Virus record (IMG/VR): IMGVR_UViG_2703718819_000007
Direction: 5' to 3' (one strand)
DNA length: 64,000 nucleotides
Origin: a virus
Taxonomy: Duplodnaviria; Heunggongvirae; Uroviricota; Caudoviricetes
Below, piece after piece: positions 30,505 through 51,798 of the stretch. Positions within the stretch are counted from its first letter, which is position 1. Every line of letters begins with the position of its first letter. The translations under genes were made by a program, and so were the position numbers. A model generated the notes under the pieces. The model was not told the DNA's origin and ran no database searches. It saw only the letters and a program-made list of their open reading frames with translations.

Positions 30505-31020
30505 ATGAATACCGAATTACCAGTAACTAACCGCCAGTTCTTAATCATCCTGCTGACCAATGCAGAGTCCAGTGTCGATTGCTGTCGCTATAACTTAGAC
30601 CTGCTGAAGTTATCCCGATGGTATGCCCAGGCGGAAGACTGGGACTATGAGAAAATCCGGGAGATGTACGCGGAGCCTATCCAGTCATACCTCCAGACAC
30701 ACACCGAGGAAGAGCTGAAGCGTGGCCTGCAGGACATCTTCTATTTCAACAATCCTTACACCTGTGAGGGTGACTCAGAAGAGATGGATTGGATAGCGTC
30801 ACGCTCTGATGCCGACTTGAAGCACATCTCTAACGCGATGATGCAGGTGGAGAGCAAATGGTCTCGCCGACTTCAGGTCCTAACTGAGGATTACGAAAAC
30901 GGCACCTTTGATAAGCTGGTCCCACCTGATACCGAACGTCTTCAGGCGAAAGCTGACCAAGAACAGCGCTTCAAGTCCTTTGCCGAAGCTCTGGCGGGAG
31001 GTGCCTCTTATGACTTCTGA
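30505..31020 (+). CDS. Hypothetical acidic protein (~171 aa)
   Basis: AAGGAG RBS 10 nt upstream of ATG 30505. Confidence 0.55.
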   Translation: MNTELPVTNRQFLIILLTNAESSVDCCRYNLDLLKLSRWYAQAEDWDYEKIREMYAEPIQSYLQTHTEEELKRGLQDIFYFNNPYTCEGDSEEMDWIASRSDADLKHISNAMMQVESKWSRRLQVLTEDYENGTFDKLVPPDTERLQAKADQEQRFKSFAEALAGGASYDF

Positions 31021-46986: not shown

Positions 46987-47397
46987 TTATTGATGCTTGT
47001 TGCGTTTGCGAGCCTCTAATAGCTCGGTGAACAGGCGATTAAAATTCTCAACGCGGGCGCGGAGTTCGCTGAGTTGTGCTTGTTGCTCTGATTTAGGAAG
47101 TGCGCGATACAAACGCAGCATCTCTAACTCATCTTCCGATAAGTCTAAGGCACTATCGAGTGAAACAGGGGGAGCTGGTGTTTTGTCCTCGTCGCCAAAC
47201 AGTATCCAGGTTGGTGAACATTGCAATACCTCGGCGAGGCGATGCAAATTTTGCCCGCGCGGGGCTGTATGGTCACTTTCCCATAATGAAATTGATGAGC
47301 CAGATACGCCAGCAGCTTTGCTTAAACCGTTTTGACTTAAGCCTACCTGCTTACGTCTTTCTCTAATGCGTTGACCTAAAGTTTTCTCGTTCATATT
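46987..47397 (-). CDS. dicA: DicA-like HTH (XRE family) repressor
   Basis: GLSQNGLSKAAGVSGSSISLWESDHTAPRGQNLHRLAEVLQCSPTWILFGDEDK. Confidence 0.8.
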   Translation of the reverse strand, partial: NMNEKTLGQRIRERRKQVGLSQNGLSKAAGVSGSSISLWESDHTAPRGQNLHRLAEVLQCSPTWILFGDEDKTPAPPVSLDSALDLSEDELEMLRLYRALPKSEQQAQLSELRARVENFNRLFTELLEARKRNKHQ

Positions 47398-47471
47398 TAG
47401 ATATCTTAATAACCCTTGACTTGAGATTCCTTGAGTGATTAGCATTGAGAAAACTCAATATTGGAGGTGCG

Positions 47472-47699
47472 ATGTTTAAATCAGACGTAATTAATTTTTA
47501 CGGTACGAAAGCCAAAGTAGCGAAAGCTGCTGGCGTTGACCCATCTGCTGTTTCTCAATGGCAAGAGCTGGTTCCTGAAGGTCGCGCGATGCGTCTACAG
47601 GAGGCATCTGGCGGCGAGCTTCAGTATGATCCCAAGGTTTATGACGAATATCGTAAGACGAAGCGGGCGGGGCGGTTGAACAATGAAAATCACTCCTGA
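47472..47699 (+). CDS. dicC: DicC-like (Cro-type) regulator, divergent from dicA
   Basis: GGAGG RBS; ...LVPEGRAMRLQEASGGELQYDPKVYDEYRKTKRAGRLNNENHS. Confidence 0.75.
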   Translation: MFKSDVINFYGTKAKVAKAAGVDPSAVSQWQELVPEGRAMRLQEASGGELQYDPKVYDEYRKTKRAGRLNNENHS

Positions 47700-48204
47700 A
47701 CAGGCTCGTGAGGCTCTGGATGCCTGGATATGTCGACCAGGAATGACACAGGAGCAGGCGACGATATTAATCACTGAAGCATTCTGGGCTTTGAAAGAGC
47801 GCCCGAACATCGATGTTCAGCGTGTCACAGATGAAGGTGGCGCGGTTGATCAGCGAGCGCTTGGCGTTAATCGAGTGAAGATATTCGAACGCTGGAAGGC
47901 TATCGACACCAGGGATAAGCGTGAAAAGTTCACGGCGCTAGTGCCTGCAATTATGGAGGCTATCCGGATTAATGATTTCAGGTTGTATCGTGAAATTAGT
48001 GACGGAAAAAGCATCACGTACATGATCGCCGGGTTAAACAAAGAATATGGCGATGTGGTGGAGTCCGGACTGCTTTTTGCTGATCCTGCCGTAGTGGATC
48101 GTGAAACTGACGAACTTATAGAAAAAGCAATTGCTTTCAAACTTGCGTATCGACAGCAATACCAACAAAAAGCTGGATGGAATTATGAGCCTTCTTTTTG
48201 CTGA
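47683..48204 (+). CDS. Hypothetical prophage early protein (173 aa)
   Basis: ORF following dicC. Confidence 0.5.
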   Translation: MKITPEQAREALDAWICRPGMTQEQATILITEAFWALKERPNIDVQRVTDEGGAVDQRALGVNRVKIFERWKAIDTRDKREKFTALVPAIMEAIRINDFRLYREISDGKSITYMIAGLNKEYGDVVESGLLFADPAVVDRETDELIEKAIAFKLAYRQQYQQKAGWNYEPSFC

Positions 48205-49150
48205 ACGCCCACTGGTTATAAACACACAGCTTGCGATGAAGATTGGCTTAAATGAAGCCATTGTGTTGCAGCAGTTGCATTACTGGTTGAGAGATACCAA
48301 TTCCGGTATGGAATGTGATGGTGTTCGCTGGATTTACAACACAACGGAACAATGGCTGGAACAGTTCCCATTCTGGTCAGAGTCAACGTTAAAGCGCGCG
48401 TTTGCAAGTCTGAAAACGCTGGGGCTTTTGCGTTGTGAAAAGCTCAATAAATCAAAGCGCGATATGACCAATTTCTACACGATCAACTACGGGAGCGAGC
48501 TTTTAGATGATGGCAAATTGAGCGAATCCATCGGTTCAAAATGCGCCGCTCCATCAGGTCAAAATGACACGATGGAAGAGGTCAAAATGAAACGCTCCAT
48601 TGGTTCAAAACGATCCAATGTCATCGGGTCAAAATGGCCTGATGATCTTACAGAGAATACAACAGAGATTACTACAGAGAATAAAAACACTTTTCGTCCG
48701 GAAGCTTCGCAACCGGACCCGCAGACGACTGAACAGGATTTTTTAACCCGGAACTCCGACGCGGTTGTGTTTAGTGCGAAAAAACGCCAGTGGGGTAGCA
48801 GGGAGGATTTGGCGTGTGCGCAGTGGATCTGGGGGCGGATCGTGGGCCTCTACGAACAGGCAGCCAGTGATGATGGCGAGATCATGAGACCAAAAGAGCC
48901 TAACTGGACTGTCTGGGCCAATGACGTGCGCACAATGCGGATGCTGGATGGCAGAAGCCACAGACAAATTTGCGAAATGTTTGGTCGGGTTCAGCGAGAT
49001 CCATTCTGGGTAAAAAACATCATGAGCCCGTCAAAGCTCCGCGAAAAATGGGACGAACTGGTCATCCGCCTGGGACGTTCACCTGTACAGCGTTGTGTTA
49101 ATCATATTTCTGAACCGGATACAGAAATTCTGCCTGGTTTCAGAGGATAA
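48185..49150 (+). CDS. Phage replication initiation/replisome-organiser-like protein
   Basis: N-terminal helix-turn-helix-like region; position downstream of cro-like gene. Confidence 0.5.
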   Translation: MSLLFAERPLVINTQLAMKIGLNEAIVLQQLHYWLRDTNSGMECDGVRWIYNTTEQWLEQFPFWSESTLKRAFASLKTLGLLRCEKLNKSKRDMTNFYTINYGSELLDDGKLSESIGSKCAAPSGQNDTMEEVKMKRSIGSKRSNVIGSKWPDDLTENTTEITTENKNTFRPEASQPDPQTTEQDFLTRNSDAVVFSAKKRQWGSREDLACAQWIWGRIVGLYEQAASDDGEIMRPKEPNWTVWANDVRTMRMLDGRSHRQICEMFGRVQRDPFWVKNIMSPSKLREKWDELVIRLGRSPVQRCVNHISEPDTEILPGFRG

Positions 49151-49190
49151 GTGTTGATTTCAGGTCATGAGGTAATTTTAAGGGGGACTT

Positions 49191-49613
49191 GTGGCAAAAG
49201 TTTTTACACAAGAAGAGCGGGAAAAAATTAAAGGGCAGGTGGTGGAACTCGTGCGCCAGAGCGGTCGTGAGACGTTACGGCAACTGGAAGCTAAAACAGG
49301 TGCGACTAGATATCTGATGAGCGTTCTTGCCAGAGAGCAGGTAGCCAGTGGCGATGTATACAACTCCGGCTACGGGTTATTCCCGTCTGAACAGGCGCGT
49401 AAGGACTGGCAAAACGCCCGCAAAAAACTCTCGAGGGCAAAGGTGAAGAAACCTGCTGTGGTTGATCCGGACCTTATCTGGTCATTACCTGACGGAGAAA
49501 TACGCCGCTACGACAGTCGTCTAAACATAATCTGTCGCGAGTGCCGGAAGAGCGAAGTTATGCAGCGTGTTCTGACGTTTTATCAGGGGAATTATCGGGA
49601 GGTGATGCTGTGA
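49191..49613 (+). CDS. Hypothetical prophage protein (140 aa)
   Basis: ORF in early-right operon. Confidence 0.45.
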   Translation: MAKVFTQEEREKIKGQVVELVRQSGRETLRQLEAKTGATRYLMSVLAREQVASGDVYNSGYGLFPSEQARKDWQNARKKLSRAKVKKPAVVDPDLIWSLPDGEIRRYDSRLNIICRECRKSEVMQRVLTFYQGNYREVML

Positions 49614-49843
49614 GTACATCGGCTACCATTCTCGACATGTGCTGTGGCAGTCGCATGCTCTGGTTCGATAAGAATGACGAATGGTCGATATTTAGCGATA
49701 TCAGGAAAGAGGAACATTCGCTATGTGATGGACGTCACCCGATTATTAATCCCGACATTATCGCTGATTTTCGTGCGCTGCCGTGGTTGTCTGCTTTGCA
49801 TCAAAAGCAGACATTACCAGATTTAGACATCTGTTTCCGATAG
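49611..49843 (+). pseudogene. Short ORF that may be a truncated remnant of an early gene (possibly a methyltransferase N-terminus)
   Basis: ILDMCCGSRMLWFDK... then ends abruptly before the QueH-like gene. Confidence 0.25.
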
Positions 49844-49875
49844 CCCGTTCTGATGCTACACTTTTTGCTATTTTC

Positions 49876-50562
49876 ATGAACCTCATAAACACATTTATGA
49901 CTGTTGCTGATTTCAAACGCCCCAAATTGGAGCTCCCAAACGGGGCAAAAAAACTATTACTGCACTCTTGCTGTGCTCCATGTTCCGGTGAAGTGATGGA
50001 GGCGCTTCAGGCCTCGGGAATCGACTACACCATCTTTTTCTACAACCCGAACATTCATCCTCAGAAAGAGTATTTAATTCGTAAGGATGAGAATATTCGC
50101 TTTGCTAAACAACACGGCGTGCCATTTATTGATGCTGATTACGACACAGACAACTGGTTTGAGCGAGCCAAAGGAATGGAATGGGAGCCTGAACGAGGGA
50201 TCCGTTGTACCATGTGTTTTGACATGCGTTTTGAGCGGACTGCACTGTATGCCGCTGAAAATGGTTTCAGTGTGATCAGTAGCTCACTGGGCATTTCACG
50301 CTGGAAAAATATGCAGCAGGTTAACGACTGTGGACGGCGAGCCGTCGCGCATTATCCGGGCATGGTGTACTGGGATTATAACTGGCGAAAACAGGGCGGC
50401 TCTTCCCGCATGATTGAAATCAGCAAGCGCGAACAATTCTATCAGCAGGAATATTGTGGCTGCGTGTATTCACTGCGCGATACCAATCTACACCGCAAAT
50501 CTCAGGGACGCCCTCTAATCAAAATTGGTCAACTGCACTACGGTAAGGAAGGACAGGAATGA
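49876..50562 (+). CDS. QueH-like (DUF208) epoxyqueuosine reductase family protein; start uncertain
   Basis: [16 protein letters not shown] motif and conserved Cys spacing. Confidence 0.6.
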
Positions 50563-51174
50563 TTTTATATTATGCCAACGGAGCGTAGCAGTGTTTCTAT
50601 ATATAGTACGCCTACCTTAATTTTCAAATAATCATGATTAATGAGCAGGTCATCAGTGCAAGCAATGACCTGCTCATCTTGTTGAAATTAGAGGAAATCT
50701 TGCAGCCATGATATGGCTTAAAATAACGTTTGATTATTTTACCTGCTGTTTGTCCCTGGTTTAAAGTCGGTTGTCTGATTTGATTACGCGCAACTGACGC
50801 TTACGTATTGAAGTAACGAGCACGAAGACACATATTTATCAGTGCCTGTATACGTCAAGAGCAGGAGATTTATGTGCTGGTTCTCAAATGCACGCTGGCT
50901 ATTGTGGCTGTAATGGCAATTTATTGTCTTGTTATTGTTCTTATGGATCACCTTTCTGATTGATTTCATATTGGCGAGGTAACGGTAGTTAAGTAGAATG
51001 GCTGCGGGTGCTTGAGGCTATCTGCCTCGGGCATGAACACCAACGGCAGATAGAGAAAAGCCCCAGTTAACATTACGCGTCCTGCAAGACGCTTAACATT
51101 AATCTGAGGCCAATTTCATGCTAGACACATGTAGGTTAGCCTCTTACGTGCCGAAAGGCAAGGAGAAGCAGGCT

Positions 51175-51330
51175 ATGAAGCAGCAAAAGGCGATGTTAAT
51201 CGCCCTGATCGTCATCTGTTTAACCGTCATAGTGACGGCACTGGTAACGAGGAAAGACCTCTGCGAGGTACGAATCCGAACCGGCCAGACGGAGGTCGCT
51301 GTCTTCACAGCTTACGAACCTGAGGAGTAA
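51175..51330 (+). CDS. hokD: Hok/Gef-family membrane toxin (51 aa), with in-frame upstream extension
   Basis: MKQQKAMLIALIVICLTVIVTALVTRKDLCEVRIRTGQTEVAVFTAYEPEE. Confidence 0.85.
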   Translation: MKQQKAMLIALIVICLTVIVTALVTRKDLCEVRIRTGQTEVAVFTAYEPEE

Positions 51331-51398
51331 GAGACCCGGCGAGGGAGAAATCCCTCGCCACCTCTGATGTGGCAGGCATCCTCAACGCACCCGCACTT

Positions 51399-51425
51399 AA
51401 CCCGCTTCGGCGGGTTTTTGTTTTT
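51399..51425 (+). terminator. Rho-independent terminator after hok
   Basis: cccgc-ttcg-gcggg hairpin plus T-run. Confidence 0.7.
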
Positions 51426-51546
51426 ATTTTCAACGCGTTTGAAGTTCTGGACGGTGCCGGAATAGAATCAAAAATACTTAAGTAGCGCGCAGGGATAAGA
51501 GGGATGGTCCCTTAAAGGGGAGAGCTAATTATCCGGAAGGATTCTG

Positions 51547-51798
51547 ATGATGAACATCGAAGAACTGCGTAAAATTTTTTGTGAAGATGGCCTCTATGCT
51601 GTGTGCGTTGAAAATGGAAACATTGTTAGTCATTACCGCATTCTGTGTTTGCGAAAGAATGGGGCTGCGTTAATTAATTTTGTGGATGCTCGGGTCACGG
51701 ACGGATTTATCTTGCGCGAAGGTGAGTTTGTCACTTCATTACAGGCACTGAAAGAGATCGGAATAAAAGCAGGCTTTTCAGCTTTTGCAGAAGAATAA
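51547..51798 (+). CDS. Hypothetical protein (83 aa)
   Basis: ORF with GGAAGG RBS-like sequence. Confidence 0.4.
   Translation: MMNIEELRKIFCEDGLYAVCVENGNIVSHYRILCLRKNGAALINFVDARVTDGFILREGEFVTSLQALKEIGIKAGFSAFAEE

Follow-up and report, generated by a model that had tools for sequence, protein, structure and literature searches.

The last step of queuosine (Q) synthesis in Escherichia coli has a particular nutritional setting, as this species is unable to synthesise cobalamin (vitamin B12) de novo. Two enzymes, QueG and QueH, carry out the same reaction at this step, converting epoxyqueuosine-tRNA (oQ-tRNA) to queuosine-tRNA (PMC5372724), with QueG being cobamide-dependent and QueH the cobamide-independent alternative (PMC6461909), and the dependence of oQ reduction on B12 in E. 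coli is attributed to Frey et al. 1988 in PMC5372724. Phages are also known to carry queuosine-pathway genes, and clusters such as that of phage 9g combine the early, preQ0-forming steps (FolE, QueD, QueE and QueC) with the DNA transglycosylase DpdA. Lambdoid prophages meanwhile carry discrete accessory genes, or 'morons', between the replication genes and Q, of which relBE and hokD in Qin are examples. Here we describe a locus which touches on each of these systems, a queH gene at 49897–50562 (+ strand, 221 amino acids) within a 64,000-nucleotide stretch of viral DNA (IMG/VR record IMGVR_UViG_2703718819_000007, referred to here as the window), predicted to encode a B12-independent iron–sulphur (Fe–S) epoxyqueuosine reductase in the early-right region of a Qin-type lambdoid prophage.

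We consider it likely that this is a functional queH carried as moron cargo, and that the predicted enzyme would provide a B12-independent reduction of oQ to Q in the tRNA of the host. According to this explanation, the phage would have captured a block of about 790 bp, in which queH is preceded by about 115 nt of its native upstream sequence, from a chromosome elsewhere in the Enterobacteriaceae. The block would then have come to occupy a slot for variable cargo, with the DUF977/LygF gene on one side and the hok/sok locus on the other, and its arrival in this variant would presumably have cost a phage DNA methyltransferase gene its 3' part. QueH, an Fe–S enzyme with no need of cobalamin, would then reduce epoxyqueuosine at position 34 of host tRNA-Asp, -Asn, -His and -Tyr to queuosine. 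Since QueG needs cobalamin and E. coli cannot make it de novo, a queH lysogen would therefore complete queuosine synthesis with or without B12. Expression in the lysogen from a native-type promoter, activity in vivo and any fitness benefit are inferred. The cassette resembles the lambdoid morons in that it is discrete, is missing from sister phages, derives from a bacterial chromosome and may bring its own promoter, but its cargo is a tRNA-modification enzyme and not a toxin–antitoxin, exclusion or virulence gene, and whereas the DpdA clusters provide the early steps of the pathway, this prophage is confined to the final step, which is specific to tRNA.

The gene is a member of the QueH (DUF208) family and retains an intact set of active-site cysteines. 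The first-pass annotation had proposed this assignment on the basis of an 11-letter signature, which corresponds to QueH residues 20–30, and a profile search confirms the family, with PF02677 (QueH) matched over profile positions 1–174 of 175 at 220.7 bits (E = 1.9e-65; Pfam gathering cut-off 23.5 bits). The solved QueH structure is that of Thermotoga maritima (7LC5/7LC7), which was recovered from the PDB by phmmer (7lc5, E = 5.4e-22), and the best five Foldseek matches to an AlphaFold (AF2) model of the prophage protein were all T. maritima QueH entries (target-normalised TM 0.76–0.79), amongst them the complex with queuosine and the mutants C9S and D13N. The model itself, built from a 20-sequence alignment, is of moderate confidence (mean pLDDT 71.7), and its fold is the same as that of the solved QueH. 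Seven cysteines (C25, C26, C29, C104, C107, C187 and C189) are unchanged in 20/20 homologues and align with T. maritima C9, C10, D13 and the RCxxC (CxxC) and CGC (CxC) motifs in the phmmer alignment, so that the conserved metal-cluster ligands CC-x2-C/D, CxxC and CxC are all found, with a cysteine at the equivalent of position 13; the C9S and D13N mutants in the PDB mark positions 9 and 13 of the T. maritima enzyme as mechanistically studied. The prophage protein is thus like chromosomal and T. maritima QueH in its full-length domain, predicted fold and motifs, and differs from the chromosomal proteins in its location in a temperate phage and in its coexistence with QueG in one cell.

The start codon we use, ATG 49897, is also that of RefSeq (WP_001595803.1, 221 amino acids), and the N-terminus it gives lines up with that of Erwinia (MTNPAFKRAKLELP). 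A longer, 259-amino-acid open reading frame (ORF) running from GTG 49783 to 50562 was dropped as a gene model because the homologues begin at the equivalent of 49897. The enzyme family is already known and the gene has already been named by RefSeq, so the protein itself is not new. Phage resources nevertheless have an annotation gap, as the protein falls in phrog_3217 (E = 5e-136), which PHROGs labels 'unknown function', and the queH of an isolated phage, HannyBb (PP925841.1, 33011–33697), is labelled 'hypothetical protein'. The phrog_3217 profile has 188 positions and begins at residue 34, past the CCAPC motif. NCBIfam gave no match for QueH, for the neighbouring methyltransferase remnant or for DUF977, and this library is uninformative here.

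The borders of the cassette were mapped by comparison with related phages which do not have it, and these bear out the earlier suggestion of mosaic cargo. Upstream lies the DUF977/LygF ('Ren-like exclusion protein') gene (49191–49613, + strand; PF06163, E = 6.5e-29; phrog_142, E = 1.5e-45), whose stop codon is overlapped by a short ORF (49610–49843, + strand) opening at GTG 49610. Only residues 3–61 of this ORF match phage DNA methyltransferases (phrog_11564, E = 2.9e-28; phrog_954, E = 1.4e-24), and RefSeq treats it as a methyltransferase pseudogene 'missing C-terminus'. In blastn comparisons, the window shares 92% DNA identity with phage PhiR42_1 over a stretch that starts at the O gene, runs on into the methyltransferase gene and ends at 49776, and this homology returns only at 50986; the short ORF is therefore a 5' stump in which the 3' part of the methyltransferase gene has been replaced by the queH block. 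True methyltransferase homology is confined to 49610–49776, beyond which the frame enters cassette DNA and ends at 49843. The first-pass annotation was right in remarking on a short ORF that stops abruptly beside queH, although the feature it gave as 49611–50562, which does contain queH, spans this remnant plus queH and is not a single gene.

The cassette itself occupies 49777–50568 (+ strand) and opens with about 115 nt of non-coding DNA, which is followed by the queH coding sequence and 6 nt past the stop codon. Across the sampled E. coli contexts and 80 IMG/VR loci, blastn placed the left border at 49770, 49780 or 49830 (the block starting at about 49777–49830) and the right border always at about 50568, and the block of about 790 bp is common to all E. 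coli prophage contexts compared. It is a discrete insert between conserved backbone genes, with borders at 49776/49777 and 50568 in the window, and PhiR42_1, K-12 Qin and K-12 Rac are all without it. DUF977 lies directly upstream of queH in every context examined (the ST131, O157, Rac-like, 'plasmid'-contig and GPEC657 prophages) and is also the left neighbour in those IMG/VR loci which reach far enough upstream. The right neighbour is likewise conserved and is the hok/sok type I toxin–antitoxin locus (51006–51330, + strand), recognised from Rfam sok (RF01794, 115 bits, 51006–51180), Pfam HOK_GEF (E = 3e-23) and the RefSeq hokD gene (51175–51330). In the window, cassette and hok region are separated by an AT-rich spacer of 372 bp (50569–50940, 39% GC) found only in this Qin-type variant and present in 117 of 5,426 complete E. 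coli genomes, while in the majority-type contexts position 50568 is joined straight to 50941 and neither the methyltransferase stump nor the spacer is present.

Further analysis indicates that queH is widely distributed in E. coli, with matches in 995 of the 5,426 complete genomes (18%), 63 of them at ≥99% identity, 83 at 95–99% and 849 at 90–95%, and with at least 80% of the gene matched in 985 of the 995. The queH-positive lineages include REL606, ST131, O104:H4 and some O157 strains, and the contexts sampled (ST131, O157:H7 Z1814, a Rac-like prophage, a 'plasmid' contig and GPEC657) were lambdoid prophages in all cases. The whole 2-kb arrangement seen in the window is found in only 71 genomes, including E. 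coli B REL606 and ATCC 11303, and across these 2 kb E. coli STEC2018-607 (NZ_CP075697.1) matches the window at 100% identity, the window position in this part being the NZ_CP075697.1 position minus 2717. In IMG/VR, 189 contigs encode queH. Amongst 50,697 curated phage records searched by tblastn, the 45-kb phage HannyBb is the sole convincing isolated phage with QueH, having the same 2 kb at 99.7% identity; the other matches, to short gut 'Bacteriophage sp.' contigs or to very large bacterial-looking contigs, were set aside. We note that laboratory lineages differ in this respect. E. coli B REL606 carries queH, whereas BL21(DE3) (NC_012892.2) and its derivatives do not, owing to a 1,361-bp deletion relative to REL606 and the window (equivalent to 49488–50848) which has cost them the 3' end of DUF977 and the methyltransferase stump together with the entire queH gene and 280 bp downstream, and queH is found neither in K-12 Rac nor in K-12 Qin. 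In REL606, the gene is intact inside a degraded prophage, where a truncated DUF968 gene and an IS3 lie close by. By comparison, queG is present in all 5,426 genomes, and prophage queH therefore represents a second enzyme for a step the host already encodes, non-orthologous to the cobalamin-dependent QueG and accessory where queG is a core gene.

The closest relatives of the prophage protein outside Escherichia are chromosomal. It shares 79–92% amino acid identity with the chromosomal QueH proteins of Scandinavium, Kluyvera, Enterobacter, Erwinia, Providencia, Proteus, Photorhabdus and other Enterobacterales, with Scandinavium the nearest (92% amino acid and 85.6% nucleotide identity) and Kluyvera and Enterobacter following at 89–90%. 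The nearest of these genes sit amid ordinary metabolic genes in non-phage contexts, and so the cassette appears to be a captured chromosomal housekeeping gene whose donor was a related member of the Enterobacteriaceae. The Erwinia queH is flanked by purL and glrK, which have no gene between them in E. coli, and the Providencia queH is found near tmcA and purC. The prophage alleles differ from one another by 5–8%, and when the window was compared with the ST131/O157 allele, 36 synonymous and 7 non-synonymous differences were found (dS 0.32, dN 0.013, ratio 0.04), with dN/dS ranging from 0.02 to 0.08 over all pairs of prophage alleles. Most of this divergence probably accumulated inside phages because the alleles have non-coding flanks in common, and together with the low dN/dS this implies that the protein has been under continued purifying selection.

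The DNA captured with the gene may include its promoter. A candidate extended −10 element (TGcTACACT, 49854–49862, + strand) lies 43 nt upstream of the queH ATG, and the 9-mer TGCTACACT is found at −43 in three of the four E. coli alleles compared (the window, ST131/O157 type and Rac-like), with the GPEC657 allele having TGCTACACA instead and TACACT at −53. The same 9-mer, TGCTACACT, is also found at −40 of the chromosomal Erwinia queH, and being common to both it suggests that a native promoter was carried in with the cassette and would allow expression from the repressed prophage. Elsewhere, −10-like hexamers occur at −36 to −38 upstream of the Providencia, Gibbsiella and Photorhabdus genes, and Ewingella has none nearer than −67. 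It should be noted that these comparisons were made by an ATG-anchored listing of motifs, which replaced a MAFFT alignment of the chromosomal queH upstream regions that was not meaningful. No −35 element was found beside TGCTACACT, and an Rfam scan of 49000–51700 recovered only sok and weak sub-threshold matches, with no preQ1 or cobalamin riboswitch and no other Rfam element upstream of queH. Induction should result in transcription of queH as well, via the pR operon, because the two are co-oriented. Downstream of the gene in this variant, the spacer carries a perfect 13-bp inverted repeat (50641–50653 / 50665–50677) with no T-run (fold z = −2.8) and may act as a weak terminator; this hairpin (50641–50677) is restricted to the Qin-type variant.

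A number of observations weigh against the explanation we favour, that of cargo serving the lysogen. A standard scan for sigma-70 two-hexamer promoters and terminators called nothing at queH, there is no obvious Shine-Dalgarno sequence at either candidate ATG, and the orientation shared with the pR early operon means that expression may be mainly post-induction. The GC content of the cassette is the same as that of the phage backbone (47% in both). Within the protein, Cys29 stands where T. maritima QueH has Asp13 (the residue mutated in PDB 9dco), although a cysteine is found here in every gammaproteobacterial homologue sampled. Part of the low dN/dS could also predate capture if the alleles had been captured independently, though the shared non-coding flanks argue otherwise. 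Finally, to our knowledge a physiological difference between oQ-tRNA and Q-tRNA has not been established, and any benefit is therefore conjectural.

One alternative explanation is that the phage uses QueH itself during lytic growth, with pR transcription of queH topping up Q in tRNA-Asp, -Asn, -His and -Tyr for the translation of late genes when B12 is scarce, and with no part in lysogenic conversion. Such a role would fit the place of queH, which comes after the replication genes and before that for the Q antiterminator and reads in the direction of cro, O and DUF977; it would also fit the lack of a terminator between queH and its neighbours in the majority-type contexts and the presence of the gene in the plaque-forming HannyBb. 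However, we think this unlikely, as queH has a native-type −10 element in common with its chromosomal counterparts, which suggests expression that does not rely on pR, and the gene has been kept intact in the degraded REL606 prophage. We would also expect tRNA turnover in one lytic cycle to be limited, and we know of no functional difference between oQ and Q on which a lytic benefit might depend.

Alternatively, queH might be a neutral hitch-hiker, of no benefit to phage or host and spread only by recombination between its conserved flanks (DUF977 and hok/sok). This would sit well with its redundancy alongside a universal queG, with its loss from BL21(DE3) with no obvious consequence, and with its presence in only 18% of genomes. 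We regard it as quite improbable, though, for a gene whose alleles have diverged by 5–8% at a dN/dS of 0.02–0.08, which is matched over at least 80% of its length in 985 of 995 positive genomes, and whose product has kept all seven invariant cysteines.

In related prophages, the interval from DUF977 to ydfU/Q is a hot spot for cargo and holds relBE, flxA and ydfV in K-12 Qin, queH with a cytosine methyltransferase and an NgoMIV-type endonuclease (a restriction–modification pair) in O157:H7 strain Z1814, queH with hok and the Doc toxin in strain ERP001, and a methyltransferase in PhiR42_1. This company of toxin–antitoxin and restriction–modification genes, together with the hok/sok locus seen here, raises the question of a role in conflict or defence, in which the change from oQ to Q at the wobble position of four tRNAs could alter sensitivity to anticodon nucleases (e.g. 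of the colicin E5 type) or to superinfecting phages. We find such a role very doubtful, since the protein is a conventional orthologue of QueH, queH has no co-varying partner gene, and the PADLOC defence models gave no match for QueH or DUF977.

The prophage carrying queH is annotated in NZ_CP075697.1 as a Qin-type lambdoid prophage of about 45 kb, extending from an integrase beside rspB to ydfK/ynfT beside ydfJ. Its gene order begins with genes for recombination and cell division (an exonuclease gene, ydfD, dicB and ydfA), followed by the repressor, cro, ydaT-like, O-like and DUF977 genes, and continues through the methyltransferase pseudogene, queH, hokD, rem, ydfU and ydfT (Q) to the lysis, terminase, head and tail genes. 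In the window, the early region includes the repressor (46987–47445, − strand), cro (47472–47699, in the same orientation as queH), the YdaT/cII-like gene (47683–48204) and the O-like replication gene (48185–49150, also in the orientation of queH), and these, with the adjoining DUF977, confirm the setting amongst replication and regulatory genes described before. The RefSeq annotation of the whole prophage (int to ynfT) includes no DpdA/TGT-like transglycosylase and no FolE, QueD, QueE or QueC, and its remaining 'hypothetical' proteins, the O-like protein excepted, are all smaller than 110 amino acids. A search of the rest of the prophage for other 7-deazaguanine pathway genes, which the first-pass annotation had recommended, thus found none annotated in the matching RefSeq record. 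Although phages do use FolE, QueC, QueD, QueE and DpdA to modify their DNA (PMC6884629), the suggestion that QueH takes part in 7-deazaguanine modification of phage DNA is scarcely credible here, as QueH acts once the base is in tRNA and this prophage is annotated with neither a transglycosylase nor preQ0-synthesis genes, the enzyme acts on an epoxy-cyclopentanediol side chain which is absent from the 7-deazaguanine DNA modifications described in PMC6884629, Hutinet et al. 2019 report no QueA, QueG or QueH homologues in the DpdA-encoding viruses they analysed (PMC6884629), and 79–92% identity to housekeeping chromosomal QueH indicates an unchanged substrate. Of the two roles put forward earlier, action on host tRNA is therefore the one we favour, though it resembles a supplementary, B12-independent form of housekeeping more than manipulation of the host.

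In the full-text literature searched, which did not extend to Zallot et al. 2017, we found no description of queH on E. coli prophages, nor in the literature searched did we find one of any phage gene that belongs exclusively to the tRNA branch of queuosine synthesis. Also absent from the searched literature are queH as recurrent lambdoid-prophage cargo in 18% of complete E. coli genomes, its coexistence with the universal B12-dependent QueG in a species unable to make B12, and the difference between laboratory lineages, in which REL606 has queH, BL21(DE3) has lost it through the 1.36-kb deletion and K-12 never had it. We see an even chance that lambdoid prophages serve as carriers of an enzyme for queuosine maturation that needs no B12, in which case about one in five E. 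coli strains (REL606, ST131, O104:H4 and some O157 strains among them) would have fully matured Q-tRNA without cobalamin, while K-12 and BL21(DE3) would stop at epoxyqueuosine. If this is true, there would be a hidden, strain-dependent epitranscriptome difference amongst standard laboratory strains. Were queH active, the queuosine status of tRNA in minimal media would depend on the strain, which would bear on translation and epitranscriptome studies and would possibly be relevant to work with REL606 in B12-free minimal medium.

Some minor features of the window are recorded here. At the left edge of the cassette there is a hairpin with an 8-bp stem (49790–49811; TCTGCTTT / AAAGCAGA), for which the ST131 allele provides no compensatory conservation and which may be left over from the terminator of the gene that preceded queH in the donor. 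The 372-bp spacer contains a promoter-like site on the minus strand (50765–50736), and between hokD and rem there is a weak Rfam match to the Hfq-binding sRNA isrK (51339–51420, + strand) which is sub-threshold (25.7 bits, E = 0.0075, against a gathering score of 50). The first part of the window (1 to about 30700) is occupied by a second, unrelated prophage with an N4-gp56-type capsid gene, an 8.4-kb LPD38-domain gene, and Ail/Lom, hok and antirepressor genes. This second prophage adjoins a truncated 4Fe-4S protein gene (30630–30713 region) next to ynfF, which suggests that it is integrated into ynfG.

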